The notes below the pieces were generated by a model that was not told the DNA's origin, did no database searches, and saw nothing but the letters and a program-made list of their open reading frames with translations. The translations under genes and the position numbers were made by a program. Shown here in pieces: positions 7,015 to 39,262 of a stretch of 64,000 bases of DNA (positions within the stretch are counted from its first letter, which is position 1; every line of letters starts with the position of its first letter). Location: IMG/VR virus record IMGVR_UViG_3300032257_000011; one strand, written 5' to 3'. The DNA is from a virus.

Positions 7015-7101
7015 CCGATAATACCCTGTCTTAGGATGAAGGTATTGCTCTGTTTTTTATTAAATAGAGAATAAGCCTACATATTAGTAAAGGGTAATAT
7101 T

Positions 7102-7935: not shown

Positions 7936-7944
7936 AATCGTTAC

Positions 7945-8397
7945 ATGATTGGATTATCAAAAAATCAAATAGAAAAAATAGAACTCATCTCATCTTCTGA
8001 AAATGTTTGCTTAACAGCCATTCTTCGTAAGGTTGTTATCGAAAGAGAATACAGCGAAGATGTCCTTATTGCTGTTTCTTCCTTCAATGTATCTACACAA
8101 CACGCATCGCCCAGCGTGTACTTGCCTCTAGTCAATAACTTAAAATTACTAAAGATTGATCCTAACGGAAAGCATGCTCACCTATATGGTTATCTATCAT
8201 CTATATGCGCTCTTATTACAATGATGGGTCCAGATGTCTATGTAAGAACAGGAATCGACACAGTAGAACAATATGAAAGCGACAAAAATCTTGGTATTAT
8301 AAAAGTATTTTCTGCTCAAGAAATAATGGATCTATCTTTTGGGTATATTGAGCCAAAAGCTATTGAAGAAATAAATCACGATGACGTTCCATTCTAA
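7945..8397 (+). CDS. tandem paralog family member 1 (shared …L..GxxVYxP/R core)
   Basis: shares motif with next four ORFs. Confidence 0.5.
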   Translation: MIGLSKNQIEKIELISSSENVCLTAILRKVVIEREYSEDVLIAVSSFNVSTQHASPSVYLPLVNNLKLLKIDPNGKHAHLYGYLSSICALITMMGPDVYVRTGIDTVEQYESDKNLGIIKVFSAQEIMDLSFGYIEPKAIEEINHDDVPF

Positions 8398-8411
8398 TAT
8401 ATGAGATTACT

Positions 8412-9203
8412 ATGTTTGAAGAAAATATAAACGCTATAAAAAGAATGACGGAAGAAGATACAGTTTATCTTGCTGTTGTTTGTTCATTCGTTAGACAAGA
8501 GACCCTTATGGCAAGAAATATGATTGTTGCTTGCTGCGACGAACCTATGGGTCCAGTAGACTTTTCTATATTATCTTGCATTGATGCCCCAGCCAGAGTT
8601 CAAGATGTTCATCCGACTATTCAAAGATACGGAGCTACTCCTCTAAATAATGCGAGAAGAGGAGACATGATGTCTTCCCTTAGAGGATATGCTACAATGC
8701 TCACCGTTATGGGCATAAAAGTTTACATGCCAATAAGGAAAAGTTATTCATCAAAAAGAAAAGGTGGCTCGCTCGTTGTAAAGAATCCAGGCATCGGAGG
8801 CGAAGCTGTTTATGAATCATCTTATGACAAAGCGGCTCACGAAAAAGAGTTTACCTTTTTTGAATTCGATCCAACAAATAAAGAACAGTTCAATTACTCA
8901 ATCCCAATCATATCCGCAAAAGACTTTGTAAAATCATTTGACTCTCTTGCTTATGATGTTGATCTGAACAGGTTCTTCCATGACCATGAAGATTCTGAAT
9001 ATTGGCAACAGATGATGGGGGACAGCTATAGTCCTGAAGAATCAAAATTAAAGATCGAACAAGAAAAGCTAAAAGAATTACAAGACACATTATTTCTCGT
9101 TCAGAATAATATGATTTCTCAAGAACAAGCTGTGAATAAAATAACGTCCACGTCCAAGACCTTTGATGAAAGACTAAAAGAAACATTTGGGAGAAATCAA
9201 TGA
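8412..9203 (+). CDS. tandem paralog family member 2
   Basis: LRGYATMLTVMGIKVYMPI core. Confidence 0.55.
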   Translation: MFEENINAIKRMTEEDTVYLAVVCSFVRQETLMARNMIVACCDEPMGPVDFSILSCIDAPARVQDVHPTIQRYGATPLNNARRGDMMSSLRGYATMLTVMGIKVYMPIRKSYSSKRKGGSLVVKNPGIGGEAVYESSYDKAAHEKEFTFFEFDPTNKEQFNYSIPIISAKDFVKSFDSLAYDVDLNRFFHDHEDSEYWQQMMGDSYSPEESKLKIEQEKLKELQDTLFLVQNNMISQEQAVNKITSTSKTFDERLKETFGRNQ

Positions 9204-21961: not shown

Positions 21962-22110
21962 TTACACTGATTGACATCAATCGTATGTGAATAAGTAACA
22001 TACTGATGACCAGAAAGATCCTTACACTGTTTCGCTAACACTGATTGGGTTACACTGTTTCGCTTACACTGAATGGCATGTGAATAGCTAACACTGAATG
22101 GCTAACACTG
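21962..22110. repeat. array of 7 TTACACTG/TAACACTG repeats with inverted TCACATG elements
   Basis: copies at 21962, 22022, 22036, 22050, 22064, 22089, 22103; CATGTGAAT at 22078 and CGCATGTGATT at 22114. Confidence 0.7.
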
Positions 22111-22122
22111 AACCGCATGTGA

Positions 22123-23086: not shown

Positions 23087-23842
23087 ATGTCAATCAAACG
23101 AGGTCGTGTCACTGAATCAGATGTCTACTACAACCATGCGAAGGACGCAGCTCTCTCAGGAGTTGAGCGACCGGATTCGATTACAAGGAGAGACGGCAAT
23201 AAACAGAAGGCCCGTCGCCATCATATCCTTGAGAAAGACTTAATCCTGAAGACTGAGGAGATGAAGCTCAAGGAGAGATGGATTGGACCCTGTAATAAGT
23301 GGAAGACATATTGGGCCATCATCGAGTCTCTCTACCAATTAGGGCCAAACCAGCAGCATCTATTTGGAGCCGTCTTTATCAAGATTGAGGAGCTGATGGA
23401 TGACGAAGCTTCCAGAGATAGTTCTGATAGAACTGCTTGGCAGCGATTTGCAGACAAAGATTCACGCAACAATACCTCAGGAAAAGATGCTCTTGGTCGT
23501 ATTTGGGACTCGATCAAAGTCCTTCAGCGTCTAGGCGGAGCGAATCCTTACGGGCTGAAGCTGGCTCAACTGGGAGCATGCATCAACATCTATGGTAAGA
23601 AGGACAAGCCTTATATTGAATTGAGAATTGGCATACCTGCTGGTTCGGACATTACTCCTATCAATGAGATTCGTTCTAGGGACTATCCCCGTTCTATTAC
23701 CTCGGTTCCTTCAGGTTATAAAGCTGAGGGTGGACTGCATGTGATAGACCTGACTGAAATTGGAGATCCATGCTCACCATCTATACAACCATTGACCATT
23801 GCTCAGGCTGCTGAGAAGCTTGAACAGAGTCCGAACTCTTGA
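23087..23842 (+). CDS. hypothetical protein
   Basis: ORF track; GAAGGAA SD; TTGACA-N17-TAAGAT promoter-like at 22883-22911. Confidence 0.55.
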   Translation: MSIKRGRVTESDVYYNHAKDAALSGVERPDSITRRDGNKQKARRHHILEKDLILKTEEMKLKERWIGPCNKWKTYWAIIESLYQLGPNQQHLFGAVFIKIEELMDDEASRDSSDRTAWQRFADKDSRNNTSGKDALGRIWDSIKVLQRLGGANPYGLKLAQLGACINIYGKKDKPYIELRIGIPAGSDITPINEIRSRDYPRSITSVPSGYKAEGGLHVIDLTEIGDPCSPSIQPLTIAQAAEKLEQSPNS

Positions 23843-23921
23843 CAGTTCTTATTCACATGCGGTAAGATATCTCTATCGAAAGTTGAGACGATTTCAACTT
23901 CCACTTATAGAGGTATAACCG

Positions 23922-25355
23922 ATGACTAGCAAAGCAAACAAGACAGGCACTCCAAAGTCCAAGGGTCGGGGGCGAAAGTCTGACCCAATCAAGTTTATTG
24001 CTCCAATCAAGCCAAACGACCACATCATCCGTGATGCTATCGACTTGGGCTTGTCTGAAAGCAACGACTCAAATGCAATCCTTTCCATCCTTCAACGCCA
24101 CCCACAGAATGTAGATACCATTCTCGATGAGGATGAGCGTTTGGAAGCGATTGCTCAACTTATGTCTGAGAATAAGATGGTTGCGGCTCCAACGGATGCC
24201 GACCGAGTTAATCGAATTCTTGACTTCGTGGTTCAATCATCCTCGGAGAAGGGCGAACAAACTTGGCTTGCTCTTTTGAGTCCAGACCGTTCTACTCTTG
24301 TATCTTTTCCAGACTACCAGGAATTGCTTCGCAAGCGTTTGATGGAGCAAATTCGTGGCGTTCGTCGTAAGGTTCGTACTGATAGTCGTAAGGCTGCTAA
24401 GGCTTTTGCTGACTACTCGGATACCAATGGGGATGGGCCTTTGGCTATCTCTTGGCATGAAGCGGCGAATGATATTGAGATTCTTGAGCGTATCCCAACT
24501 GGTCATCAAATCTTGGATGAATTCTTTGGGTACGATGAGATTGAAACTCCTAACGGAGAGAAGATTAGAATCGGCGGTATGATTAACGGTCATACTTACA
24601 TCGTCGGCGCGCCTCATGGCATGGGTAAGACTCGTTGGCTTGTTGACCTGCTTGCTCGTTTGTGCGGCAAGGCTTCAATGGATGAGCATGGTAGAACTGT
24701 CGGCGGTATGACTGGTCTCTACATTCAAGGGGAAGAAACCCCAAGCCGATTTGCTTCAATGTTCGTCGATGGTCTTTGGATAAAGGGCGAGCATGATATC
24801 CATCTTTCGGATAAGGCTGTCTTTATGACTCAGCACGAATCGCTTATCAAGCAACTTCGACCTGATATTGTGGTCATCGACTCCAAGGATATCATGGAAG
24901 ATTGGAAGCATCCATCGGCTGCCAAGCGTAACGCTAAACTGTACAATCGTTGGGCGGCTGAATACGGATTTGTTCTCTTTGTTATCTCTCATGTCAATGC
25001 TGAGGGAAAGATTAAGGGCGGTTCCGATTTGCCTCACATGTTCCGAGCCGAAATCCTTGGCGCTCGTAATGAGCATGATGCCTCTATGTTCTATCTTCGG
25101 ATGGGCAAGAATCGTGGTTCCCAAGGCGGCGGCGTAGTCCACTACAAGCATGGTTCAAAGACTGTCCATATTGTTGATGAAGCGACTGGCGATACCATAA
25201 TCAAGACCGAGATGTGTCCTGATGCTGCCTTGCTAACTGGCATGGTTGATTCGGCTGTAAATCATAATCAGACTACAACGGCTTTGCTCTCTCAAATCAA
25301 TACGGCAACGGAGAGAACAAGCGGAACTAGGGTCGTAGAGAACACGGCGAACTAG
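23922..25355 (+). CDS. DnaB/RepA-like RecA-fold helicase
   Basis: Walker A GAPHGMGKT, Walker B VVIDSKD, RecA-like core. Confidence 0.65.
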   Translation: MTSKANKTGTPKSKGRGRKSDPIKFIAPIKPNDHIIRDAIDLGLSESNDSNAILSILQRHPQNVDTILDEDERLEAIAQLMSENKMVAAPTDADRVNRILDFVVQSSSEKGEQTWLALLSPDRSTLVSFPDYQELLRKRLMEQIRGVRRKVRTDSRKAAKAFADYSDTNGDGPLAISWHEAANDIEILERIPTGHQILDEFFGYDEIETPNGEKIRIGGMINGHTYIVGAPHGMGKTRWLVDLLARLCGKASMDEHGRTVGGMTGLYIQGEETPSRFASMFVDGLWIKGEHDIHLSDKAVFMTQHESLIKQLRPDIVVIDSKDIMEDWKHPSAAKRNAKLYNRWAAEYGFVLFVISHVNAEGKIKGGSDLPHMFRAEILGARNEHDASMFYLRMGKNRGSQGGGVVHYKHGSKTVHIVDEATGDTIIKTEMCPDAALLTGMVDSAVNHNQTTTALLSQINTATERTSGTRVVENTAN

Positions 25356-25555
25356 ACAGGCACCTCTAGGGGGATAGCAATCGTCTCTGCTCATCCTCTT
25401 TGTATCCATCGCTTTCATCGGAGCGGTGGATATTTTTAGTATTCCGCGGTTATTCACATGCGATTGGTATGGGTTCGTGGTATACTGTAAGAGTCAGACC
25501 GAGCGTTTCGGAATGGCAAATCAAAGTGAACCCACTCTTAAGGAAGGACAGCACG

Positions 25556-26890
25556 ATGACAGTAGTTACTCAGACAAACGGACGAATTCAGACAGACAAT
25601 GAGGGAGGTATCGAGAGATTCGTTACCCAAGAGCGTAAAGGGTTGGATGCGAAAGACGGGATTACTTCTCGTATGTTCAGTCCAACGGATTGCATTGCTC
25701 ATTTGCAGGCAGCGGGCAGCGGTCGGTTTGACCTGCTTGTTGATGGTTCAAACTCTCTCAATATTATCTCAGACTCAAAGAGCGAATCGGGTCTTTCGAT
25801 TGCTCCACAGGTGGGAGATATCTCTGGTCAATCAGAAAATGGGGCTGCATTTGCGAATGCAATCAACACCAATGGTTCCGCTCATATCTCCAAGGCTGCA
25901 TTGAACCAACTTTGTTCATTGCTTGGAGTCAATGGAGGGTGGAAGCGTTACGAGAAGATGAATACTCCAGTTGCCAACTTCATGCGAGACATGAATCAAA
26001 TGTTTGGTACAAGCAATGGGGAATCATCCTTTGTTGCTCGGACAAACAGCCGTGGTAAGGATTATGTTGTTGAATCATTCTTGGCTCCAAATGTAGACCG
26101 TACCGATTCTACTGTTATCGTAGGGGCTGCTATGCAAGCCGTTATTGAACAGTGGGGCGACAGTCTGCGAGGGGTAGAGGTTATCAACCACAATGCAGGT
26201 GGCGGTTCCAAATTCCGTTTGCTCTTTGGCGATGCGGTTCTCGATGAGAAGGAAACCGATGGATACAAGAAATTGTTTCCTATGCTTGACCTGACGCTCT
26301 CAGATAGTCGTAGGTTCCATCCATCTGCTGCCTTGGGCCTCTGGCGCATGTGGTGTTTGAATGGTTGTAGCACGAAAGATTGGGACCTGGCAAGCTGGAA
26401 GGGTAACGCTACATCAAGCGGAGCCGATATGATTTCTGGCATCCAAGGGCTTGTCAATGTTGCTTTCCCAGTTGCGGGCGCAATCGCTGGCGGCTTGACG
26501 AACTTGCAGCATCAAGAACTCGGCATGAAGCCACAAGATATCGTTAGCATGATTGCTGGTCGAAATCTGATTGGTAACAGTTTCCGAGACGACCTGATTC
26601 ATTGCATCGAGAATGGCGGCGGCGATGGTAAGGGCGTAAATACCGAGTGGGATATGTTCAATACCTTTACTCATGGGGCTAAAATGGCTGGCTCGCTTGC
26701 AAGCCGTGGAAGCAATGAGAACAAGGGCTTGCTGTATGCTCTCGCTGACGGTGGCTTTACGGGCGTTGCTCAGAGCGGTTTCAACCGAGACCAATTCAAG
26801 TCGAAAATGGCTGACATGTACGAGAGCAATGTTGGAGACCCTAAGACTACTGGTCTTGGCGCTAAGAAGGCTTTGGCATCGGTCGCATAA
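25556..26890 (+). CDS. Gly-rich hypothetical protein
   Basis: AAGGAAGG SD then ATG; terminator follows. Confidence 0.55.
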   Translation: MTVVTQTNGRIQTDNEGGIERFVTQERKGLDAKDGITSRMFSPTDCIAHLQAAGSGRFDLLVDGSNSLNIISDSKSESGLSIAPQVGDISGQSENGAAFANAINTNGSAHISKAALNQLCSLLGVNGGWKRYEKMNTPVANFMRDMNQMFGTSNGESSFVARTNSRGKDYVVESFLAPNVDRTDSTVIVGAAMQAVIEQWGDSLRGVEVINHNAGGGSKFRLLFGDAVLDEKETDGYKKLFPMLDLTLSDSRRFHPSAALGLWRMWCLNGCSTKDWDLASWKGNATSSGADMISGIQGLVNVAFPVAGAIAGGLTNLQHQELGMKPQDIVSMIAGRNLIGNSFRDDLIHCIENGGGDGKGVNTEWDMFNTFTHGAKMAGSLASRGSNENKGLLYALADGGFTGVAQSGFNRDQFKSKMADMYESNVGDPKTTGLGAKKALASVA

Positions 26891-28359: not shown

Positions 28360-28637
28360 CCCTCACATATTCACATACCAAGGACCACGTGGACCACATA
28401 CTATGAACCCAAACCTGCCAACAAGTCGTTTTGTTTTCCCTTATAAAGGAGTCAACCTCCTTTGGGAGCTTATTGGGCCAACGAAGTCGGGCACTCTGTG
28501 CAAGACTGTCAGCGGAATTCATAATGGGAAGAGGTACTTTACGTGCGGAGCATCTGCTCTCTTCGAACAGCGGCACTTAGATCTACTGTTGTGTGATATA
28601 GTTGTTCGCTCAGGTTTGAAAGTCGATGGAGATAGAT

Positions 28638-29285
28638 ATGAAGATACTCGGAGACATCCACGGCAACCTGCACAGACTCTCTCGTGTCATGCGTGATACT
28701 GAGGATGATGTACTATGTGTTGGGGATGTCGGTATTGGATTCAAAGGGGTAGGACAACACCCTTCTCTTTCCGAAAGATTCCATTTCATTCGTGGCAACC
28801 ATGATTGGCCTTACTGGTGTAAGAAGCATCCTCAATTCACTCTCGACTACGGGATGTGGAGAGACATGTTCCTCCTTGGTGGCGCTCGTTCTGTTGATAA
28901 GGAGTGGAGAACCGAGAACGTGAATTGGTGGGCTGACGAAGAATTGTCTTATGGCGAGCTTCAGAAGGCTATCGAGCTGTACGCTGAAGAGAAGCCAAAC
29001 GTTGTCATTTCTCATGAGGCTCCTTTTCAGATCGCTGCTGAATTGAAAGCACATGTGCAGGCTCTGGACCCTGGGTTGGCTGCGTTTGGGGAGCCTACTC
29101 CTTATTCAACGTCAATGGCTATGGATCAGATGTTGGAGATTCATCAACCGGACCTTTGGGTCTTCGGGCACTGGCACGCAACTTGGTCTAAGCAAGTCGG
29201 AAAGACTCGCTTTATCTGCGCAAACATATTTGAGTTGCTTGACGTTGATGAGCAGTTGGCTCTTTCACATGCTGAAGCTGAGTAG
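28638..29285 (+). CDS. calcineurin-like metallophosphoesterase (Ser/Thr phosphatase type)
   Basis: GDIHG, GDVGIG, GNHD, GHWH motifs. Confidence 0.75.
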   Translation: MKILGDIHGNLHRLSRVMRDTEDDVLCVGDVGIGFKGVGQHPSLSERFHFIRGNHDWPYWCKKHPQFTLDYGMWRDMFLLGGARSVDKEWRTENVNWWADEELSYGELQKAIELYAEEKPNVVISHEAPFQIAAELKAHVQALDPGLAAFGEPTPYSTSMAMDQMLEIHQPDLWVFGHWHATWSKQVGKTRFICANIFELLDVDEQLALSHAEAE

Positions 29286-29581: not shown

Positions 29582-29753
29582 ATGACCATGAACACTCAGT
29601 TCCAAACAGATAGACTATTACTTGCGTAAAGGGAAGGCCCCTACTAACGCTTGCTATGTCTCTGTAGTCAAGACCTCATAACAACTCAATGAATATACTT
29701 GCCGTACCGCTGCTCTAAAGAGAAACGTACATCATGGGCAAGTTTTTCTTATT

Positions 29754-29837
29754 GGCCCTATGGTGAAATTGGTAGACACGCTAGGTTCAAATTCTAGTGG
29801 CTGAAAGGTCGTCCCGGTTCGATTCCGGGTAGGGTTA
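29754..29837 (+). tRNA. tRNA-Leu (anticodon CAA), type II
   Basis: hand-folded cloverleaf; long variable arm; GGTTCGATTCC T-loop; no CCA encoded. Confidence 0.7.
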
Positions 29838-30140
29838 TTCACTTGTAAGAGATTCTATCATGTGATAGTATGACGATACAAATAGAGCTGATGCTCAGAA
29901 GGAATGAAATGAATAGTAAGATGACGAATGTAGCTCGGAAACACAGGATGAGCCGCAAGAAGATGCAGGCGCAGGTTCGAGCAGAGAAAGCAAAATCAAA
30001 GAAGTAGATGAAAAAACCGAGTAAGGAAGAATTGAAAGCAGCTATACAGAGACACGTTGAGAAGTCAGCGGAGGCTGTGGCAAAGATCCCTCTTGAGAAG
30101 AGGACGATTTTGAGTAAGTTCGACTTGGAGAAAAATTGAT

Positions 30141-30326
30141 ATGGTTATAAAAATAGGTAACAAATTTGTGTCTTGGGAGAAATCAGGAAGAGGTATTTAT
30201 ACCGTTTATACTTATTCTTTGCAGAAAGAAAGACCTGAAGAAAGCACAGCGACAGAGATAGCAAGAAGAAGTAGACAAATGAGTTTTATTGGATTTGCAA
30301 GATTCAAAGAAATGGAATTTTGTTAA
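30141..30326 (+). CDS. hypothetical small protein
   Basis: ORF track only. Confidence 0.3.
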   Translation: MVIKIGNKFVSWEKSGRGIYTVYTYSLQKERPEESTATEIARRSRQMSFIGFARFKEMEFC

Positions 30327-30332
30327 ACACAC

Positions 30333-30414
30333 GGCCCCGTGGCGGAATTGGTAGACGCGCAAGATTTAGGTTCTTGTTCCTTACGGAGTGCAGGTTCGAT
30401 GCCTGTCGGGGTTA
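30333..30414 (+). tRNA. tRNA-Leu (anticodon TAG), type II
   Basis: hand-folded; long variable arm. Confidence 0.7.
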
Positions 30415-30418
30415 TTTA

Positions 30419-30502
30419 GCTTATGTGGCGGAATTGGTAGACGCGTATCCTTGAGGTGGATATTCTAGAAATAGAGTGGAGGTTCGATTCCTCTCATGAG
30501 CA
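30419..30502 (+). tRNA. tRNA-Leu (anticodon GAG), type II
   Basis: hand-folded; long variable arm. Confidence 0.65.
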
Positions 30503-30511
30503 TTATAAATC

Positions 30512-30584
30512 CCTCTTGTAGCCCAATGGCAGAGGCGTTTGTCTTAGGAACAAAATGTTGGTGGTTCGACTCCACTCAAGAGGA
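30512..30584 (+). tRNA. tRNA, anticodon TAG, short variable arm (identity uncertain)
   Basis: 73 nt; C1-G72; 3-bp D stem; anticodon loop CTTAGGA; T-loop GGTTCGACTCC. Confidence 0.5.
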
Positions 30585-30588
30585 TTTA

Positions 30589-30664
30589 GGCCCTGTAGCC
30601 CAACTTGGTAGGAGGCGACAGACTTAAAATTTGTACAGTGTGGGTTCGAATCCCTCCAGGGTCA
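30589..30664 (+). tRNA. tRNA, anticodon TAA, short variable arm, enlarged D-arm (identity uncertain)
   Basis: 76 nt; anticodon loop CTTAAAA; T-loop GGGTTCGAATCCC; one T-stem mismatch. Confidence 0.45.
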
Positions 30665-32223: not shown

Positions 32224-32398
32224 AGAACGTAAAGAATTTCTAGAGTATCTCACTCGCACTCGTAACGAATTTTTAAAAGTTTTGCGAGTGCAGATAGAAA
32301 AAGTTCGTAACCACAAGCAAGAAGATGGACCTGCAATTCTTTTGCCTAATAGCAAACAATGGTATGAAGGTGCAAGATTTTACAGAGATGAATGGTAA
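32210..32398 (+). CDS. hypothetical small protein
   Basis: ORF track. Confidence 0.35.
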   Translation: MQENKERKEFLEYLTRTRNEFLKVLRVQIEKVRNHKQEDGPAILLPNSKQWYEGARFYRDEW

Positions 32399-32406
32399 AA
32401 ACATTT

Positions 32407-32480
32407 GCTCGACTAGCTCAACTGGATAGAGCGTCGGTCTTCTAAACCGAAGGTTCTGGGTTCGAGTCCCAGGTCGAGTG
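32407..32480 (+). tRNA. tRNA-Arg (anticodon TCT)
   Basis: hand-folded; anticodon loop CTTCTAA. Confidence 0.7.
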
Positions 32481-32487
32481 TTGGTAT

Positions 32488-32573
32488 GGGCTTGTGGCGG
32501 AATTGGTAGACGCAACGGACTTAAAATCCGTCGAGGGTAAATCCTCATGAGGGTTCGAGTCCCTCCAGGCCTA
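32488..32573 (+). tRNA. tRNA-Leu (anticodon TAA), type II
   Basis: hand-folded; long variable arm. Confidence 0.65.
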
Positions 32574-32690
32574 TTTGAAAAGAAATCACCTGAGAATCAA
32601 TCAGGTGAACACAAAATCTGATATACTCATATCTGAACAGCCCATCAAAGGGCAAGAAACTCAATTTCATCCCTAACGGAGAAACAAAGA

Positions 32691-33347
32691 ATGTCAGACA
32701 TGAATATTGCCAACAAACCAGGCGCACAGTCAATTACTGATGCACAAGCAAGCGAACTCGATTACGTTATTGCCATTGATACAAGCGGTTCTATGGCTGG
32801 TCGAGACCCACAGCGTACTGACCTCACCCTTTTCAAGCACGCTCAGGAATGGACAACCGGAATGTCACGTTGGGCTGAAACTGTAGATGATGACGGCATT
32901 ACCGTTATTGCCTTTGGTGGAAACTCTATCGCAATGACAGACAACGTTACAGCAGATAGCGTTGAGACCGTATTCAATTCGCAGCCTCCACGAGGAAGCA
33001 CCCCAACTACTGAAGCTGTCCAGAAGATCATTGACATGAAACTTGCTGGAACGTTTACTAAGGATGTTGTTGCCTTCATCATAACTGATGGTAAGCCAAA
33101 CAACTCCGAGGGTGTTGCTCAAGCAATTGCTGCATGGACTAATCACCCAAGCGCAACTGAGCAAGGTATTTCATTCTCATTCATTCAGATTGGTAATGAT
33201 ACAGCCGCTCGTAATTTCCTTACAATGCTTGATGATGACCTCGAATCCAAGTATGGTGCGAAGTTCGACTGTGTAGACACTCGTACTCTTGCTGAAACAG
33301 AAAACATGTCATACGGCCAACTCGTATGGGGCGCACAGAACGACTAA
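32691..33347 (+). CDS. vWA-domain protein (TerY-like)
   Basis: MIDAS motif VIAIDTSGSM plus ITDGKPN; sits immediately upstream of TerD and TerB homologues. Confidence 0.7.
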   Translation: MSDMNIANKPGAQSITDAQASELDYVIAIDTSGSMAGRDPQRTDLTLFKHAQEWTTGMSRWAETVDDDGITVIAFGGNSIAMTDNVTADSVETVFNSQPPRGSTPTTEAVQKIIDMKLAGTFTKDVVAFIITDGKPNNSEGVAQAIAAWTNHPSATEQGISFSFIQIGNDTAARNFLTMLDDDLESKYGAKFDCVDTRTLAETENMSYGQLVWGAQND

Positions 33348-33465
33348 ATCTCCGAGCAGACAGGCACACCGCTTGTCTGTTTTTTCTCATCTATCAATGT
33401 AGATAGATGGTACTTAACCGCAAGCATTGCTTGCAAATTGTCCTCTTAGGACAAAGGAAACTCAA

Positions 33466-34059
33466 ATGTTGACAATTACTCCAAAGGGCGGGACCGTTGG
33501 TCTCACCATCGCAGCCAAGGCAACTCCTGAAGCATCAACCGCTCCAAATCAGTTCAACTTCGGTGCTGGTTGGGATACCACTGGTGGCGAGGCAGACCTT
33601 GACCTTTGCCTCTTGCAGCATCGTGGCCGTGGCGCTGCTGCTACTGATGGCGATCTCATCTACTACGCTAACCTGACCTCTGCTGGCATCACCCACACCG
33701 GCGATAACCAGACTGGCGAAGGCGACGGAGATGATGAGAATGTTCGCATGAACCTTGCTGATCTTCCTGCTGACGTTACTGCTGTTTCAATCGGTATCGT
33801 TGCATACTCAGCTACTGACTTCGGTAGCGTTGACAACATCCACCTTGAAGGTCGTGCTGGCGATGCTGAGAACGGTTCAGGTCTCTTCGGAGCTGATTTC
33901 TCAGAAACTGGCAACAACACATGCCTCGTAGCTGCACGCCTTGAGCGTCAGGATGATGGCGAGTGGACTGTGGTCAATACTTCAGAGTTCTCGAACCCAG
34001 GCAATGGCGGAGCTGCTATCCAGGGCTTCGTAACTGCTGCATCAGCGCTTTACAGCTAA
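33466..34059 (+). CDS. terD: TerD-family stress protein
   Basis: GWD…DLDL…HTGDNQTGEGDGDDE…DLPADV match TerD Ca-binding signature. Confidence 0.8.
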   Translation: MLTITPKGGTVGLTIAAKATPEASTAPNQFNFGAGWDTTGGEADLDLCLLQHRGRGAAATDGDLIYYANLTSAGITHTGDNQTGEGDGDDENVRMNLADLPADVTAVSIGIVAYSATDFGSVDNIHLEGRAGDAENGSGLFGADFSETGNNTCLVAARLERQDDGEWTVVNTSEFSNPGNGGAAIQGFVTAASALYS

Positions 34060-34163
34060 TCCTCTGTTGGGATTTGGTTTACAACAGTTAGAGGGTAGAA
34101 ATATCCTCTGCTGTTTTCGGAAAACAATAACAGTGCAAGTTGCACAGAACTTAGGAGAAGCAA

Positions 34164-34625
34164 ATGGCTTTTACAAAATTTATGAACATCATGAACAACG
34201 TGGCAGGAGACATTACTGCGAGTGCGAAGAAATTCTCTAACTCAGGAACTCGTGACCGAGCCGCTGCTGTAGCTGCTATCGTTGCTTATGTTCCTGACCA
34301 AGACGCTGACAAGGACGAAATCAGCAAGGGAGTTAAGGCTATTCACAAGATGACTGATGGAGCTTTCAAGATTGATGAAATGCTTGCAGCCGTAAACAGT
34401 GCAGTTGAGACACTTGAGTTTGATGTAGACATGGGATACACGGAATTGATGAATACTGTCCGCAAGGCAGGCGCTGACGAACGACGTTTGCTTGTTAGCG
34501 TTGGCATCGCAGTCGGTAAGTCATCTGGCGAACCGGGCGAAGATCCATTCTCTCCTGAAGAAAAAGATTGCGTTCGTCGAATGATTACTGACCTCGGTAT
34601 GAATGCTTCAGATTTTGGTCTGTAA
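34164..34625 (+). CDS. terB: TerB-like protein
   Basis: C-terminus VGIAVGKSSGE…EEKDCVRRMITDLGMNASDFGL parallels TerB. Confidence 0.65.
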   Translation: MAFTKFMNIMNNVAGDITASAKKFSNSGTRDRAAAVAAIVAYVPDQDADKDEISKGVKAIHKMTDGAFKIDEMLAAVNSAVETLEFDVDMGYTELMNTVRKAGADERRLLVSVGIAVGKSSGEPGEDPFSPEEKDCVRRMITDLGMNASDFGL

Positions 34626-34650
34626 AGAATAAGTCAGACCATTTGTTTCC

Positions 34651-34688
34651 ATAGGGCCGGGTGTACCCTTATGCCCGGTCCTATTTTT
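34651..34688 (+). terminator. terminator-like hairpin + T-run
   Basis: ccggg…cccgg stem then tatttttc. Confidence 0.45.
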
Positions 34689-34711
34689 CAATCAGCTCAA
34701 AGGAATAACTC

Positions 34712-35833
34712 ATGCAATGGACTCACGATTTAGCCACAACCATGTCAACGTGGCATTGGTCACTTTCTCTCCTTCTCACGATTTTGATGACGGTCGTAAT
34801 TAGCCGTGTGATTGCTTGGGCCTGCGACCACTTCGAACCTGCTGCTGGACATCTTGGCCGTAATTGGCCAGCCGGAATCCGTGGAGCAACAATTAATGCT
34901 GTTGGTTCTTCGATGCCTGAGTTGTGGACGACTGTGGGTCTTCTCTTCTTTGTGGGCGTAGGCACTACGACTGGAGTGGCTCTCCTTGGGGCAGGTATCA
35001 GCGTTACAGCGGGGTCTGCTGTTTTCAATTCGGTACTCATTCCTGCTGCTGTAATCTTCGCCGTCACAGCTCCTTTTGTTTTGCGAATCCTGACGTTCGG
35101 GCTTGTCTCAAAAATGGCAAAACAGGCTGATTCGTTCGTAATTGACAAAAGAAGCGTGGCTCGTGACCTCGTATTCATGCTTATTGCTGAAGTATCGCTC
35201 ATCTACTTCCTTCACAACGGGGTCTTCCAGCTCTGGATGTGCTTGTCCTTACTTGGTCTGTACGCCTTTTACGTCCTATTCATGTGGCAAGCTGTACGCT
35301 CTCATGAAGGAGAGGAAACGGAAGCTGAAGAGGGTTGGACGAACAAGCGGGCGCTTTGGACACTTTGTTGGACCACGTTGGCTCTCGTTGTCGCTTGTTA
35401 CTGTCTTGGCGAAATTATCGTAATTTCTGCTGTGGCCCTTGGTATTCACCCCATAATTTCTGCTGTCTTCTTTGGAGCTGCTGCATCGAGCGTTCCTGAC
35501 GTAATCCTGAGCGTAAAGGATGCACGAGCTGGAAATTACGAGGATGCGATTGCAAACGCTGTTGGAAGCAATACATTTGACATCTGTGTTGCTCTGGCTG
35601 GCCCAATGGCAATCTACATCCTGATGTATGGAGAGATTGTTCTTCCTGACCATGCGGCTGTGGAGATCCTCAGGATTGGTCTCCTTCTAACGACGGTACT
35701 TGTCGTTGGTCTTCTCCTTCTAACCAAGCAGGTTCGGTCATGGATCGCCTGGGTCCTGATGGCGGCGTACTTGGTCTGGATCTTCTTTGTTCTTGATACT
35801 GAGTTTGGTCTATTGTTCTTCTCAGGCACCTAG
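34712..35833 (+). CDS. CaCA-family cation/Ca2+ exchanger-like membrane protein
   Basis: about 10 TM helices; alpha-repeat-like GSSMPEL and ASSVPDV. Confidence 0.5.
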   Translation: MQWTHDLATTMSTWHWSLSLLLTILMTVVISRVIAWACDHFEPAAGHLGRNWPAGIRGATINAVGSSMPELWTTVGLLFFVGVGTTTGVALLGAGISVTAGSAVFNSVLIPAAVIFAVTAPFVLRILTFGLVSKMAKQADSFVIDKRSVARDLVFMLIAEVSLIYFLHNGVFQLWMCLSLLGLYAFYVLFMWQAVRSHEGEETEAEEGWTNKRALWTLCWTTLALVVACYCLGEIIVISAVALGIHPIISAVFFGAAASSVPDVILSVKDARAGNYEDAIANAVGSNTFDICVALAGPMAIYILMYGEIVLPDHAAVEILRIGLLLTTVLVVGLLLLTKQVRSWIAWVLMAAYLVWIFFVLDTEFGLLFFSGT

Positions 35834-35892
35834 TCCTTTTCACATGCTATAACCCTTCAGGGACAGTTGATAACGCCCTTAGAAAGGAGCTT

Positions 35893-36177
35893 TTGATGAA
35901 TCAGAGTTACTATCCAACCAAATGGCCAGTCATAGGCCGGTACGTCCGATACTGGGTCAACGATCCGCCTGAGTCCTTGGCTCTGTCGCTCATTCTTGCA
36001 ATCCTGGCGATTGGATGGATGATTACTGCGGGGTCTGTTGTTCCTTTTGGTTTACACATCCTGGCAGCTCTTTTTGTTCTGGCTTCCCTCTTCTTCTTGG
36101 TGGGGATTACCTTCCTCATCTTGAATCAACGGGAAGTTGAACGTATTCGAGCTGAATATCGCAAGAAGAATCCCTAA
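35893..36177 (+). CDS. small membrane protein
   Basis: ORF track. Confidence 0.45.
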   Translation: MMNQSYYPTKWPVIGRYVRYWVNDPPESLALSLILAILAIGWMITAGSVVPFGLHILAALFVLASLFFLVGITFLILNQREVERIRAEYRKKNP

Positions 36178-36588
36178 ATGGCCATGAATTCCACTATGTT
36201 GTTGCATTCATACCAAATAGAGAACTTCTTGAACCCTGACAGGTTTGCTGAAGCTAGCGAGCTGTGTCAGCTCTTCTGCGAGCGTCAGGACAAGGCGTTG
36301 ATTGGCGGATGGGACGGAGAGGGTGAGCCTCTCTTCTCTGAAGACGCAATTAGCTTCAATGGTTCTGGCGACGACGGGCACCAAACGTTTCAGATACGTC
36401 TGAATGGAACAGGTCCTCGGTTATGTGATACCAATCACAATGCATACGACGTAGTGGTCCGTGGTTGTCTTCTTATCCTGAAGAGCGTTTTCGAGGAGGA
36501 ACTCACAATTCACATTGACGGAGGTCACGAACCTTCGACAGAATTGGCTCGGGCGCTCGTGGAGAGTTACGTTGGCAGAGCGGTATAG
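36178..36588 (+). CDS. hypothetical protein
   Basis: ORF track. Confidence 0.5.
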   Translation: MAMNSTMLLHSYQIENFLNPDRFAEASELCQLFCERQDKALIGGWDGEGEPLFSEDAISFNGSGDDGHQTFQIRLNGTGPRLCDTNHNAYDVVVRGCLLILKSVFEEELTIHIDGGHEPSTELARALVESYVGRAV

Positions 36589-36614
36589 AGGCAGGCACTC
36601 TAAGAAATTGTCTC

Positions 36615-36629
36615 TTTTCCGCGGAAAAA
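36615..36629. promoter_or_regulatory. TTTTCCGCGGAAAAA palindrome
   Basis: read directly. Confidence 0.45.
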
Positions 36630-36785
36630 TGAGAGAATCTACTTGACTTTGAAGAAAAAGTGTGAAATAATGAAGGAACATCAAACAGATGGTCGAATAG
36701 GTTTATACATGAAAAATGTCAAAGTCCATATTAGCATAGTGATTATACCCTAGCGGGGGTAGTCGTTATCTTTATGGATACGGTC

Positions 36786-36823
36786 AACCTCGCTCCCTGC
36801 TTCGGTAGGAAACGAGGTTTTTT
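36786..36823 (+). terminator. hairpin + T6 before tRNA-Val
   Basis: cctcg…cgagg stem + tttttt. Confidence 0.5.
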
Positions 36824-36826
36824 ATT

Positions 36827-36899
36827 GGGCGATTAACTCAATGGCTAGAGTGCTTGCTTTACACGCAAGAAGTTCCCGGTTCGAGTCCGGGATTGCCTA
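36827..36899 (+). tRNA. tRNA-Val (anticodon TAC)
   Basis: hand-folded; anticodon loop TTTACAC. Confidence 0.7.
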
Positions 36900-36910
36900 C
36901 TTCACATTTC

Positions 36911-36985
36911 CCGATTGTAGCTCAGTTGGTTTAGAGCGTTCGCCTGATAAGCGAGAGGCCGGAAGTTCAAGTCTTCCCAATCGGA
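36911..36985 (+). tRNA. tRNA-Ile (anticodon GAT)
   Basis: hand-folded; perfect 7-bp acceptor stem. Confidence 0.7.
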
Positions 36986-37075
36986 TTTAAAACCTGGAGT
37001 TTAGCTATACTCCCATATCAAAATAGCACTCGGAAGTTTTGACCCGTTTGATAGATCGGGGAGGTCTTCTAGCAC

Positions 37076-37149
37076 ATTCCTGTAGCTCAGTTGGCTAGAG
37101 CGCTTTCCTGACACGAAAGAGGCCAGAGGTTCGAGTCCTCTTAGGAATA
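37076..37149 (+). tRNA. tRNA-Val (anticodon GAC)
   Basis: hand-folded; A1-U72. Confidence 0.6.
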
Positions 37150-37265
37150 TTCACATACCTTTCTTCGGAAAAGTAGAGATAAGCCAAGCGAGTGAAGCAG
37201 AGATGCGGTATACTTGGTTTCGACGATTCTTTGACAAGTAAATAGATAATATACTTCATCTTATT

Positions 37266-37338
37266 GGGGCTTTAGCTCAGCGGTTAGAGCATTCCACTCA
37301 TAATGGACAGGTCCTGAGTTCGAATCTCAGAAGCCCTA
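37266..37338 (+). tRNA. tRNA-Met (anticodon CAT; elongator or Ile2-type)
   Basis: hand-folded; anticodon loop CTCATAA. Confidence 0.6.
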
Positions 37339-37348
37339 CTTTCAAGAT

Positions 37349-37423
37349 GGTGAGCGTAGTTCAATTGGTTAGAGCATCTGGTTGTGATCCAGAATGTTGC
37401 GGGTTCGAGCCCCGTCGCCCACC
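37349..37423 (+). tRNA. tRNA-His (anticodon GTG) with G-1 and C73
   Basis: hand-folded; extra 5' G pairing with discriminator C is the His hallmark. Confidence 0.7.
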
Positions 37424-37467
37424 CTTTTAGTTGTAAGTCTTTATTCTTCCTCAAGTTGAATTCAAAT

Positions 37468-37575
37468 TGAAAAACTTTGAGAAAAATGAGTCTTACGACT
37501 TGACATTTTCCTTTTATCTGTTATACTTAGAGACCAACCCAAACGGGAAGGTTTGACAAGTAAATAAAGTAATAA
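37468..37575 (+). promoter_or_regulatory. repeat unit 1 with sigma70 consensus promoter TTGACA-N16-TATACT (37500-37527)
   Basis: about 108-bp unit repeated in tandem. Confidence 0.65.
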
Positions 37576-37602
37576 AAGGAAGTCCCTTGCTCTCTGCGGT
37601 TT

Positions 37603-37710
37603 GAAAAAACTTTGAGAAAAAAGAGACATTCCCCTTGACATCTGAATTTTAGATGTTATACTTAGAGACCGACCCACTTGGGACGGCATGACAAGTAAAT
37701 AAAGTAATAA
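37603..37710 (+). promoter_or_regulatory. repeat unit 2 with TTGACA-N16-TATACT (37635-37662)
   Basis: near-identical copy of unit 1, ending in GACAAGTAAATAAAGTAATAA. Confidence 0.65.
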
Positions 37711-37889
37711 GATGATGATTCCTAAAATTCACGTCGGAGAAATCCTGTTCGAGAAAAAAGGGAATCACCTTGGGACCGAAACCCTCTTACAGTATTTTCG
37801 ATTTTGTTTGGCAAAGCGTTGTGAAAGTTGGAGCTGAACCAAACTGAAAGGTCGAAGATATATTCAACAAAGGGAAGTAAGTCCCGTTT

Positions 37890-38102
37890 GGGACATTAGC
37901 TCAGAGAAGATGAGTTTCCTCGTGGAACTCTAAGGAGCGTTTCTCTCACTCATGGGTTGTTTGAAAACCCAGGCACTTGAATCAAACGAGCGAATCTCCG
38001 TGGTAGCAATACCCGAGACAAGCGAGTAATTTTCGAGACCTGAGAATTCGAGCAGCCCATGAGGGAGAGAAAAGGTCGGCAGTTCGAGTCTGTCATGTCC
38101 CA
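37890..38102 (+). ncRNA. tRNA-like element with about 140-nt structured insertion
   Basis: perfect acceptor GGGACAT/ATGTCCC; D-arm; T-arm GGCAGTTCGAGTCTGTC; variable loop AGGTC; 17-bp helix (37940-56 with 38056-72) closing a 99-nt insert. Confidence 0.5.
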
Positions 38103-38107
38103 CTTTC

Positions 38108-38307
38108 GCCGAGGTAGCTCAACGGCCCGTAAGGGGATTTAGCAACCAAGACCTGGTTCACACCAGAAATTGGGAACTAAATTAGAGCGTTCCTAGTCAT
38201 CGGATAATATGAATGTCTTTTTGTATTTATGAAATACAGACAGCGCTAAACTATTTGTATTATCCGATGATTAGGAAAGGTAGTAGGTTCGACTCCTACT
38301 CTCGGCT
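38108..38307 (+). ncRNA. second tRNA-like element with insertions in D-loop and anticodon-loop positions
   Basis: acceptor GCCGAGG/TCTCGGC; T-arm GTAGGTTCGACTCCTAC; anticodon stem TTCCT/AGGAA extended to about 20 bp (38190-38209 with 38258-38277). Confidence 0.5.
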
Positions 38308-39262
38308 TTTCCAAGTTGCTAGTATCCTTTTGCTCGGAAGCAAAAAAACTAGTGGAGTCCCGTCTTGGGCGACCAAAATAGACTATGGTTTGATGATTTC
38401 CACACGATGAAACATCAGCTAAACAGCTCAGGTTCAGAAGAATAATATTTGCTTGCAAGCATTATTTGGAGAATTAAAAAACAGACTATGGTGGTCTGAA
38501 AGAGTGGACTTTGAATCCAGTTTACGTTGACACACGACTTCGATAATAATCACAGACATGTACAGGATGAAAAGCCTGACATGTCTTTAGAATGGTCAAA
38601 GCTGCGAGGCCCGAAACCATTTGACATATGCAGATTTCCAACATGCGGGTTAAAGCGCAAAGGAAAAAAGCTTTTAGATTGCAAATCTGAACTGTTAGGA
38701 ATGGCAGGAAAGAAATGCTTGAGAAGGTATGTTAGGTCTTGACCTGATATCTCGTCTTCCAAGGAACCGAAAGGGAAACTTGGCTAAAGCAGAAGAACTT
38801 GAAACAGTTCCAAGTATGTAGCCGCAACCGAATATCAAATGGCGACATTTGGTAAAACGAGCGACAACTGTTCGAGGAGATCATCCTCTTCGGACGGTTT
38901 CCCAATACCTTGTTTAGCCTCTTAAGGGAAAGCGACAAGGCTCTGGCTGACTCCAGCTAAACTAAAAGGAGTAGGCAGTTCATGCCTTTGGAAGCAGGAC
39001 GCCAAACCTGTCAAGGACTTGTAATCCTTACTGAGTGTTTGGATGTCACGTAGCTGAGACGAAAATGGACTAGGGCGACCTGGGTGAGAAACCTGGGCCG
39101 ACCCTTTAGGAAGCGCGAAAGCAATTCCGAGCTATTGGATGACCCGTGATTGAACATTAGGGATTCCAAAGGTACTCTTCTTTTGCTAACGGTTAAATCA
39201 ATACCGAACAAGCAAACTCGAAGAGTAACTACTTAGAGAACTAAACAGCTCTTTGTAGTTTT
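38308..39262 (+). ncRNA. about 950-nt non-coding region; candidate large structured ncRNA (GOLLD/ROOL-class hypothesis)
   Basis: no ORF above 71 aa on either strand; downstream of tandem strong promoters; flanked by tRNAs; internal repeat AGACTATGG x2; several GNRA/UUCG-like hairpins. Confidence 0.3.

Follow-up and report, generated by a model that had tools for sequence, protein, structure and literature searches.

Genes for a vWA-domain protein, TerD, TerB and a CaCA-superfamily exchanger lie on one strand at 32691-35833 of the window (the whole stretch of 64,000 nucleotides analysed here) and sit between two tRNA clusters, as had been proposed from the letters of the DNA; two small lineage-specific genes follow them within these borders (Table 1). 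The four domain calls of that sequence-only reading held in Pfam searches and every motif it quoted was found in the translations (GWD, DLDL, HTGDNQTGEGDGDDE, VGIAVGKS...DFGL, DTSGSM...ITDG, GSSMPEL and SSVPDV). The second and third proteins were placed in TerD and TerB, the membrane protein matched CaCA and not TerC, and no TerC was found by Pfam in the window; the core reading, a Ter-like set followed by a CaCA exchanger in a phage-like genome, is supported.

Table 1. Features of the Ter-CaCA locus and its borders (positions in the window)
Feature	Coordinates	Strand	Basis or remark
Metallophos (calcineurin-like) protein	28626..29285		Pfam
tRNA-Arg(tct) and tRNA-Leu(taa)	32406..32574	+	ARAGORN, Rfam; last of upstream cluster, upstream boundary
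vWA-domain protein, 218 aa	32691..33347	+	VWA_2, phrog_5359, MIDAS alignment
Predicted terminator-like hairpin, 12 pairs and T run	33354..33382	+	between vWA and TerD
TerD, 197 aa	33466..34059	+	Pfam TerD; alternative TTG start at 33427
Predicted terminator-like hairpin	34089..34110	+	between TerD and TerB
TerB, 153 aa	34164..34625	+	Pfam TerB
Predicted strong terminator-like hairpin, 15 pairs	34651..34684	+	between TerB and exchanger gene
CaCA-superfamily cation/Ca2+ exchanger, 373 aa, 10 TM	34712..35833	+	Pfam Na_Ca_ex, twice
Small 2-TM protein, 94 aa, lineage-specific	35893..36177	+	ORF; 2 hydrophobic segments
Soluble protein, 136 aa, lineage-specific	36178..36588	+	ORF; start abuts preceding gene
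Predicted terminator-like hairpin	36799..36818	+	closes gene set
tRNA-Val, Ile, Val, Met, His cluster	36827..37424	+	ARAGORN, Rfam; downstream boundary

TerD (74.7 bits against the Pfam family, E = 9e-21) carries the canonical Ca2+-binding loops (DLDL; GDNQTGEGDGDDE) and aligned over its full length to two solved TerD structures (3ibz and 2kxt), whose Ca2+ loop it matches exactly. TerB scored 28.7 bits against a cut-off of 24.4, and its alignment with Klebsiella TerB 2jxu (E = 4e-7) spans both proteins, each 153 amino acids long, from end to end. The vWA protein, which had been called TerY, does have a vWA domain whose MIDAS is intact by alignment (D30-x-S32-x-S34, then T, then the D of ‘ITDG’), but the TerY name is carried only weakly by scores below the Pfam cut-offs (26.8 bits for VWA_2, just under the gathering cut-off of 27, and 19.9 bits, E = 9e-4, for vWA-TerF-like) and by 22-24% identity to vWA proteins of bacterial TerY-kinase-phosphatase loci; it is a vWA protein associated with Ter genes and at most TerY/TerF-like.

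Assignment of the membrane protein to CaCA rather than TerC, as first suggested, was confirmed by two Pfam Na_Ca_ex halves (79.3 bits, E = 4e-22) and by Foldseek, in which its AlphaFold model (pLDDT 90.1) matched only CaCA structures (NCLX, CAX, NCX_Mj, YfkE, VCX1 and NCX1). There are 10 hydrophobic segments, and a score of 73 bits against NCBIfam TIGR00367, below the YrbG equivalog cut-off, places it in a distinct subfamily. Profile alignment to NCX_Mj and NCX1 showed that 12 of 12 NCX_Mj ion-coordinating positions are chemically equivalent (A63, S66, S67 and E70, with S102 and N106, for the alpha-1 repeat; A256, S259, S260 and D263, with S286 and D290, for alpha-2), the changes from NCX_Mj being T to S twice and E213 to D, as in NCX1. 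The protein shares the 10-TM fold and two alpha-repeats of the solved CaCA structures (NCX_Mj 3v5u, NCX1 8sgi, NCLX 9ps1 and CAX/YfkE/VCX1), all CaCA ion-coordinating positions, and the E/D pair of NCX1, but it is a predicted exchanger only, about 15-18% identical to them and without regulatory CBD domains, and it belongs to a distinct clade defined by linkage to Ter genes.

The 94-amino-acid protein matched no Pfam or PHROG family, lacks the K+-channel filter motif and has no equivalent in other phage cassettes. Its 136-amino-acid neighbour had no match in Pfam, PHROG, NCBIfam or PADLOC and is unrelated to the product of the gene that follows CaCA in Roseibium. Terminator-like hairpins are frequent across the locus (11 in 32300-37000 compared to 4.2 +/- 2.3 in shuffled sequence), and as they fall between genes, the members of the set could be separate transcription units.

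In a related contig of about 120 kb all six genes are found at the same position, in the same order and between the same tRNA clusters, with a Leu tRNA cluster immediately upstream of the vWA gene, a Val/Val/Met/His cluster in the same relative place as the downstream cluster of the window and a 15-pair hairpin after TerD. Between the two, identity is 67-81% for the four core proteins (vWA 67%, TerD 81%, TerB 72%) and 56% for the 136-amino-acid protein, while the 94-amino-acid protein, at 31%, is weakly conserved. With pN of 0.12-0.24 and pS of 0.56-0.80 for the four core genes (0.23 and 0.70 for vWA), the four-gene set is, judged by these substitution estimates, under purifying selection.

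The set had been treated as a one-off; it is a member of a cassette that recurs in marine bacteria and phages. The exchanger groups in a CaCA clade whose members are found in physical linkage with Ter genes. TerD or TerB is present at 36 of the 80 bacterial loci that hold this clade; at 33 no more than 700 bp separates CaCA from its closest Ter gene, and at 33 the two are on the same strand. No Ter gene lies within about 6 kb of CaCA at the remaining 44, a count to be read with the CaCA gene being within 1.5 kb of the end of the locus at 18 of the 80. Ter accessory families neighbour the bacterial CaCA-Ter loci (PRTase_2, StiP, PELOTA_1, TRSP, HAD, Pkinase and PP2C), up to three vWA genes each are found at three bacterial CaCA loci (L075, L087 and L090), and none of the multi-TM proteins neighbouring CaCA in bacterial loci is TerC. 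Among viruses, TerD plus TerB or vWA is followed by CaCA in all nine IMG/VR viral contigs with upstream DNA, and cultured Vibrio phages of four groups (D93, 1.084.O, D69 and D505) have one to three TerD genes and/or TerB, then CaCA, which makes the system open to experiment. A K+ channel directly follows CaCA in three phage lineages. The phage copies lack the signalling and biosynthetic branches and keep the metal-binding and transport parts, and at least two phage clades acquired the cassette independently. The closest cellular copy was found in a part of the Roseibium sp. Sym1 chromosome that resembles a prophage and holds a tRNA array; vWA and TerB precede CaCA there (CaCA identity 51%). 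On these sequence comparisons the window carries, in compact phage-borne form, a ‘CaCA-type Ter system’ without TerC, which is a widespread and, it appears, so far undescribed variant of the ‘tellurite-resistance’ (Ter) stress system of bacteria.

With the classical ter cluster (terZABCDEF of IncHI2 plasmids, E. coli O157 and Klebsiella; TerD 2kxt/3ibz, TerB 2jxu) the window shares the TerD Ca2+-binding loops, a full-length TerB of equal size, a vWA protein and a polytopic cation-transport protein as membrane component. It differs in having the CaCA exchanger in place of TerC and one TerD rather than four or five paralogues, in lacking PRTase, HAD, ATP-grasp and TelA genes, and in being carried by a phage-like genome. 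Members of the TerC family transport metal (Mn2+; PMC10550928), which would make a cation exchanger in the TerC slot a like-for-like displacement. The TerY-P triad (vWA TerY, PP2C phosphatase and Ser/Thr kinase) has in common with the window a single-domain MIDAS vWA in a Ter context, and kinase and PP2C families do neighbour Ter-positive bacterial CaCA loci, but the window has neither kinase nor PP2C, no PADLOC match and a vWA protein of the low identity given above. A calcineurin-type phosphatase had been noted upstream, and the Metallophos protein is real, but it is not PP2C and a tie to the module is unsupported, as tRNAs and other genes intervene and, in the other phage copies examined, neither annotation nor searches showed a phosphatase next to the module.

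Large phages carrying Ter genes are known, and the excerpted text of Iyer, Anantharaman, Krishnan, Burroughs & Aravind 2021 (PMC7824862) predicts superinfection exclusion or stress tolerance for jumbo-phage Ter operons. As described in that excerpt, those operons contain TerC, TerF and TelA (Caulobacter jumbo phages) or a PRTase/HAD branch (Acinetobacter phage ME3), and it mentions no CaCA exchanger for them, unlike the window. The Jug phages, reported in 2026 (PMC12880540, which also cites the chlorella-virus Ca2+-ATPase), encode a Ca2+ P-type ATPase proposed to reset host Ca2+ and also carry several terD genes. Theirs is an ATP-driven pump whereas the window encodes a secondary exchanger, whose gene shares a cassette with TerD and TerB, a physical linkage that the 2026 paper does not point out.

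We lean, with modest confidence, towards a compact, TerC-less Ter module in a large phage-like genome that controls or reads Ca2+ flux at the infected cell's membrane. The CaCA exchanger would be the membrane part, most likely moving Ca2+ through the inner membrane of the host in exchange for Na+ or H+. TerD may act as a cytosolic sensor or buffer that binds Ca2+, TerB as an adaptor linking TerD to the exchanger at the membrane, and the vWA protein as a metal-dependent scaffold through its MIDAS site. The TerB step is the weakest, since many TerD-CaCA loci have no TerB or none that can be recognised. Expression of the cassette during infection would then control or read out membrane Ca2+ flux and could keep the envelope, and the Ca2+ level of the cytosol, steady during phage replication; as with classical Ter systems, the cell may also become resistant to attack by further phages. 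Transport of Ca2+ and its direction, a physical complex and a gain for the phage are our inferences.

Ter clusters are linked to phage and colicin resistance, and the set may instead be mainly an inter-phage weapon that blocks entry or replication of superinfecting phages and leaves host ion balance aside, which we regard as possible but doubtful. Superinfection exclusion is predicted for jumbo-phage Ter operons in the excerpt cited above (PMC7824862), the bacterial CaCA-Ter loci hold the TerY-kinase-PP2C triad and nucleoside-metabolite branch typical of conflict systems, and repeated acquisition by phages is what a portable defence module would show. However, no PADLOC defence model matched any of the six proteins of the module, the phage copies have dropped the signalling and biosynthetic branches while retaining metal binding and transport, and the K+ channel paired with the cassette in some phages points to ion management. 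This explanation overlaps with control of Ca2+ flux and may be a downstream consequence of it.

It is unlikely that the cassette is a conversion set (‘moron’) giving a lysogenised host resistance to metal, oxidative or tellurite-type stress, with no role in lytic growth. Ter genes are classically counted as stress-resistance genes, hairpins flank individual genes here, as is common for morons, and the Roseibium copy is in a prophage-like region; against this, searches of the 64-kb window turned up no integrase or repressor module, the cultured Vibrio phages with the cassette were isolated by plaque assay, and in both related large genomes it lies among tRNA arrays near replication-type genes (at 23-27 kb in the window). 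The description of the carrier as a lytic phage is unsupported, as the window has no lifestyle or structural genes and its nearest cellular copy is the prophage-like Roseibium region.

The ‘phage’ label depends on context, as neither the window nor about 17 kb of flanks yielded a recognisable capsid, portal, terminase or tail gene. Together with the lack of an INPHARED nucleotide match or a close relative in IMG/VR, and with CaCA-Ter loci being common in bacteria, this would suit a piece of bacterial chromosome, a plasmid or another mobile element with an ordinary bacterial CaCA-type Ter operon. We consider this quite improbable, given the 13 arrayed tRNA genes, about 97 of 112 predicted ORFs on one strand (the majority small and without a Pfam family), 44 PHROG family matches in the window (including HNH endonucleases and a DnaB-like helicase), RtcB and NUDIX genes in the flank and no ribosomal or core metabolic genes seen. 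The syntenic 120-kb contig argues the same way, as do the sister CaCA sequences: one contig that carries them also encodes Mu-type baseplate genes, and others are IMG/VR viral contigs.

That the four genes adjoin by accident, without joint function, is strongly disfavoured and very improbable despite the hairpins between them and the marginal vWA assignment, since their order is kept in a relative at saturated synonymous divergence and dozens of independent loci repeat the CaCA-Ter linkage, among them the 33 bacterial ones with no more than 700 bp between the genes and every examined phage locus with upstream DNA.

The gene set that the sequence-only reading had placed between two tRNA clusters, encoding a vWA protein, TerD, TerB and a CaCA-type cation exchanger, was borne out by Pfam searches, structure alignments and tRNA coordinates, and every motif quoted in that reading was found in the proteins of the window; we regard this identification as very probable. 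TerD aligns over its full length with the solved TerD structures 3ibz and 2kxt, and in this alignment the Ca2+-binding loop GDNQTGEGDGDDE and the DLDL motif are kept and GDNxTGEGDGDDE is conserved, while TerB matches the Klebsiella TerB (2jxu, 153 aa) from one end to the other. All of the MIDAS residues (DTSGS ... T ... ITDG) are present by alignment in the vWA protein, but its naming as TerY was only weakly upheld, as it scores under the Pfam cut-offs (for vWA-TerF-like 19.9 bits against 29.4, E 9e-4) and has 22-24% identity with the vWA proteins of TerY-kinase-PP2C loci. An iterative HMM search found a single TerD ORF in the window and not the several paralogues (TerZ/A/D/E/F) of a classical cluster. 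PADLOC gave zero matches for the module proteins and the set fits no catalogued defence system. The small protein tm94, considered as a Kcv-like mini K+ channel, agrees with this in length and in its two TM segments but has no TxGYGD filter, and p136 has no similarity to the gene downstream of the CaCA gene of Roseibium.

Coordinates of features in the window and in the bacterial and viral loci compared with it (bit scores are from Pfam)
Locus	Feature	Coordinates	Strand	Remarks
Window	tRNA cluster, upstream boundary	32406-32574
Window	vWA protein, 218 aa	32691-33347	+	VWA_2, 26.8 bits (cut-off 27)
Window	TerD	33466-34059	+	TerD, 74.7 bits
Window	TerB	34164-34625	+	TerB, 28.7 bits (cut-off 24.4)
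Window	CaCA exchanger, 373 aa	34712-35833	+	two Na_Ca_ex halves, 79.3 bits
Window	tm94, 2-TM protein, 94 aa	35893-36177	+	no family match
Window	p136, 136 aa	36178-36588	+	no family match
Window	tRNA cluster, downstream boundary	36827-37424
Window	Hairpins after vWA, TerD, TerB and p136	33354-33382, 34089-34110, 34651-34684, 36799-36818		terminator-like, GC-rich, with T runs
Window	SPFH/Band_7 protein, 590 aa	47-1819		Pfam E 8e-14; phrog_200 'lipoprotein'
Window	14-nt tandem repeat	22021-22112		about six copies
Window	Helicase-type genes	23087-26890
Window	Metallophos protein	28626-29285		Pfam
Window	tRNA-His to last tRNA-Met	37424-39262		~1.8 kb; only short ORFs, either strand
L005	Prophage-like region, Roseibium sp. 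Sym1 (CP114786.1)	4896385-4913473		vWA ... TerB-CaCA
L095	K+ channel-like protein, Vibrio phage D69	6375-7022		Ion_trans_2
L096	K+ channel-like protein, Vibrio phage 1.084.O	3912-4571	-
L105	K+ channel-like protein, IMG/VR 3300036764_000324	6535-7191
L094	PEP-utilising-enzyme mobile domain protein, 483 aa, D93	6407-7858		just downstream of cassette
L020	Long TerD	7300-8493		further loci alike
L021	Long TerD	3022-4257
L022	Long TerD	7157-8455
L026	Long TerD	7076-8422
L028	Long TerD	7159-8355

The membrane protein is a predicted CaCA exchanger with an intact ion site and not TerC, as the sequence-only reading had held. It has 10 hydrophobic segments, with its two Na_Ca_ex alpha-repeat halves recognised by Pfam, and its AlphaFold model (pLDDT 90.1, pTM 0.89) found only CaCA structures among its top 28 Foldseek matches (NCLX, CAX, NCX_Mj, YfkE, VCX1 and NCX1; TM-score up to 0.72). 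A phmmer search of the PDB with the single sequence returned nothing, and a profile, built from 44 clade members, was required to match NCX1 (E 1e-17) and NCX_Mj (E 2e-9). In the profile alignment A63, S66, S67, E70, S102, N106, A256, S259, S260, D263, S286 and D290 occupy the twelve ion-coordinating positions of NCX_Mj (A47, T50, S51, E54, S77, N81, A206, T209, S210, E213, S236 and D240), the only changes being T to S twice and E213 to D, the latter being the state found in mammalian NCX1, and these positions are invariant or nearly so across the 44 members. The exchanger thus carries a complete predicted Ca2+/cation site. Although a member of the CaCA superfamily, it is not a YrbG equivalog, scoring so far under the cut-offs (73 bits against 179.65 for TIGR00367 and 25.9 against 432 for PRK10734) that it falls in a subfamily of its own. 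TerC was not found among the module proteins or in 90 other ORFs of the window.

Synteny with the window was seen in a related ~120-kb JGI contig, L004, which has the order vWA-TerD-TerB-CaCA-tm-p130 unchanged, flanked by tRNA clusters for Leu on one side and for Val/Met/His on the other. Identities between the two are 67% for vWA, 81% for TerD, 72% for TerB, 69% for CaCA, 31% for tm94 and 56% for p136. For the four core genes pN is 0.12-0.24 against a saturated pS of 0.56-0.80, which marks them as old residents under purifying selection. A calcineurin-type phosphatase upstream of the module had also been drawn into the earlier interpretation; the Metallophos protein is real and is kept in L004, but tRNAs and other genes intervene, no phosphatase was annotated or detected beside the cassette in the other phage copies examined, and its link to the module is unsupported.

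To place the set among cellular genes, one genome for each GTDB species was scanned with a profile, which gave 342 CaCA relatives; 80 loci were retained, and their ORFs were searched iteratively with profiles seeded from the TerD, TerB and vWA proteins of the window. TerD and/or TerB was present in 36 of the 80; in 33 loci the nearest Ter gene lay no more than 700 bp from CaCA, and in 33 it shared the strand of CaCA. The CaCA loci come from Alpha- and Gammaproteobacteria, Myxococcota, Desulfobacterota, Bacteroidota and others, with Ter linkage scattered over the whole CaCA tree. Among the unassigned neighbours of the CaCA loci, classic Ter accessory families were enriched within 3 kb: PRTase_2 (8), StiP (7), PELOTA_1 (6), TRSP (5), HAD (4), Pkinase (3) and PP2C (2). 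TerC was not among the neighbour families with at least two members in Ter-positive bacterial CaCA loci, nor was it found in the 10 multi-TM neighbours scanned (from 16 such proteins in these loci). In the tree the window exchanger falls inside the Ter-linked CaCA clade, which we define by a CaCA gene that adjoins TerD and/or TerB in the same orientation and is not accompanied by TerC, as is the case in the window. The simplest reading is that the CaCA exchanger is a non-orthologous displacement of TerC. TerC-family proteins are metal (Mn2+) transporters (PMC10550928) and so one cation transporter would have been swapped for another. In many gammaproteobacterial and Myxococcota loci CaCA is followed by a ~400-aa TerD-containing protein and then by a ~425-aa gene; StiP and PRTase families are frequent near this long TerD, giving a conserved operon of TerD-x-CaCA-long TerD-enzyme.

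Compared with the classical ter cluster, the window module shares TerD and TerB and may work similarly, but since TerC and multiple TerD genes are lacking and the assignment of the vWA protein to TerY is weak, we file it as a TerC-less, CaCA-type variant outside that cluster. Nor is it a TerY-P triad (vWA with PP2C and a Ser/Thr kinase), as the window ORFs include neither Pkinase nor PP2C. With these caveats on TerY and the phosphatase, the interpretation as a Ter-like module with a CaCA exchanger is supported.

The cassette recurs in phages and prophage-like elements. An uncultured contig with Mu-type baseplate genes (L010) carries TerD-TerB-CaCA, and the closest named cellular copy is that of Roseibium sp. 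Sym1, where the prophage-like region also holds DUF932, HTH, thymidylate synthase, DnaJ, adenylosuccinate synthase and DnaA-like genes as well as six tRNAs in an array. When IMG/VR was scanned with the CaCA and TerD proteins as single sequences no close relatives came up, the viral copies coming from the profile scan only; TerD plus TerB or vWA lay directly before CaCA in 9 of 9 IMG/VR contigs (30-212 kb) for which upstream DNA was available. The exchanger was matched in 38 phage records and all four of the groups examined carry the cassette: Vibrio phages of the D93 group (79 kb; three TerDs, a 153-aa protein and CaCA), Vibrio phage 1.084.O (142 kb; three TerDs, a TerB-like protein and CaCA), the D69 group of Vibrio phages (187 kb) and the D505 group of Vibrio phages (78 kb; TerB-CaCA). 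Their cassette proteins are mostly annotated as hypothetical or at domain level. Other phage cassettes have one to three TerDs, and in most of those aligned at least one TerD keeps the acidic loop GDxxxG(D/E)...DD..E, which is canonical in the window and L004. The 153-aa protein of D93 was missed by the TerB profile (hhalign probability 20%) and its equivalent in 1.084.O was matched (2.7e-07). TerB-CaCA is the minimal pair, in D505 and alphaproteobacteria. Carriers, judged from isolate and MAG names, are mostly marine.

In a neighbour-joining tree the window shares one clade with L004, L010, Roseibium and a Rhodospirillaceae MAG, next to alphaproteobacterial TerB-CaCA loci, and the Vibrio phages form a second next to Endozoicomonas loci. 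This implies that the cassette was captured independently two or more times, on each occasion from the bacterial class to which the host probably belongs; for the window an alphaproteobacterial host is expected from the tree. Ca2+-binding TerD, TerB, MIDAS vWA and the CaCA exchanger are inherited, selected and repeatedly transferred as a set. A small membrane partner 3' of CaCA common to all phage cassettes was looked for and not found. Three phage lineages have, directly downstream of CaCA, a 2-TM K+ channel-like protein of ~215 aa with a TTIGYGD/TTIGFGD filter (35-37% mutual identity), which has no homologue in the window.

We propose that the exchanger would swap Ca2+ for Na+ or H+ at the inner membrane of the host, with TerD sensing or buffering Ca2+ beneath it, TerB coupling TerD to the exchanger and the vWA protein acting as a scaffold for the assembly. 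This could steady the Ca2+ and envelope of the infected cell while the phage replicates and/or translate the Ca2+ leak caused by a second phage into its exclusion. We lean towards the combined statement of module identity and a role in Ca2+ homeostasis, and give homeostasis roughly an even chance of being the primary role. The main rival, which partly overlaps with this explanation, is that exclusion of superinfecting phages is the primary purpose, which we consider possible but rather unlikely; such a role has been proposed for the Ter operons of jumbo phages, matching the idea of a leak leading to exclusion (PMC7824862), and this idea also parallels a 2026 report of Jug phages with a highly transcribed Ca2+ P-type ATPase and with terD genes (PMC12880540). 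That the set is a moron benefiting the host seems to us a good deal less probable than either; the Roseibium copy lies in what may be an integrated large temperate element.

A non-phage origin of the contig is improbable. In ENA ERZ27251083 the window corresponds to contig k141_51752 (117.5 kb) and runs on into k141_1233302 (55.4 kb), and as it bridges these two separate contigs the genome is at least about 170 kb, a size which approaches the jumbo-phage range. Coding is almost wholly on one strand, with mostly small ORFs without a Pfam family, and the window has 13 tRNA genes and 44 PHROG family matches, HNH endonucleases and a DnaB-like helicase among them. Also encoded in the window are SPFH/Band_7, DnaJ, Fic and methyltransferase domains, and RtcB and NUDIX genes just upstream of its start. 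No capsid, portal, terminase or tail genes were recognised in the window or its flanks of about 17 kb, which together cover only part of the genome, an INPHARED nucleotide search gave no match for the module, and no integrase gene was recognised; the earlier description of the phage as lytic gained no support from any test in the analysis. Phage identity is therefore well supported but not proven, its support being the context of tRNA arrays, PHROG matches, single-strand coding and phage-borne sister cassettes. Adjacency by chance is the least likely reading, since TerD genes are rare within a genome and chance pairing of CaCA with Ter genes would not be credible at the frequency observed.

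What Ter genes do has been uncertain for decades, and they have been scored as 'tellurite resistance' though tellurite is seldom met with in nature. It was already known that phages can carry Ter genes and that TerD binds Ca2+; what appears to be new is that TerC is systematically swapped for CaCA, that this variant is spread through marine bacteria and phages, and that cultured Vibrio phages have it. Full-text literature searches gave no link between Ter genes and CaCA exchangers, and the main comparative study of Ter systems (Anantharaman et al. 2012) may contain an earlier mention. A natural variant with a Ca2+ exchanger as partner, its predicted ion sites intact, next to a Ca2+-binding TerD, points to Ca2+/divalent-cation handling as the core Ter activity. 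The predicted exchanger would be a second class of phage-encoded Ca2+ transporter beside the P-type ATPase reported in 2026. More speculatively, and with considerable doubt, Ter systems may at heart be machines for Ca2+ (divalent-cation) flux and sensing at the inner membrane, with stripped-down phage versions using or suppressing Ca2+ influx as a 'breach alarm' during infection and superinfection; this view is drawn from the repeated replacement of TerC by CaCA, in some cases joined by a K+ channel, among bacteria and in two or more phage clades that are independent of each other. If true, it would mean a Ca2+-based danger signal in bacteria and their viruses and would assign a primary function to Ter genes. 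As the carriers include plaque-isolated Vibrio phages the idea is testable, and the old question of Ter function becomes an experiment.

Some further features of the window were seen. Base composition changes sharply at the tandem repeat, immediately upstream of the helicase-type genes (GC 0.35-0.38 over the greater part of 2-20 kb and 0.44-0.48 at 22-30 kb, with a GC skew of 0.29 at 20-22 kb), and the site may represent an iteron or origin region or else the join of two genome modules. Of the 13 tRNA genes, seven are tRNA-Leu (caa, tag twice, gag, taa twice) and two are tRNA-Met (29753-30664 and 32406-32574), a set unusually Leu-heavy for a phage, and L004 has a similar Leu cluster. The stretch from tRNA-His to the last tRNA-Met gave no tRNAs and no Rfam families at gathering score. 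The large SPFH/Band_7 protein, of the membrane-scaffold type, is encoded about 31 kb from the Ter module. Hairpin sites number 11 in 32300-37000 against 4.2 +/- 2.3 in shuffles, and L004 has one strong hairpin, after its TerD; those in the module may set the relative expression of its genes or stabilise their transcripts.
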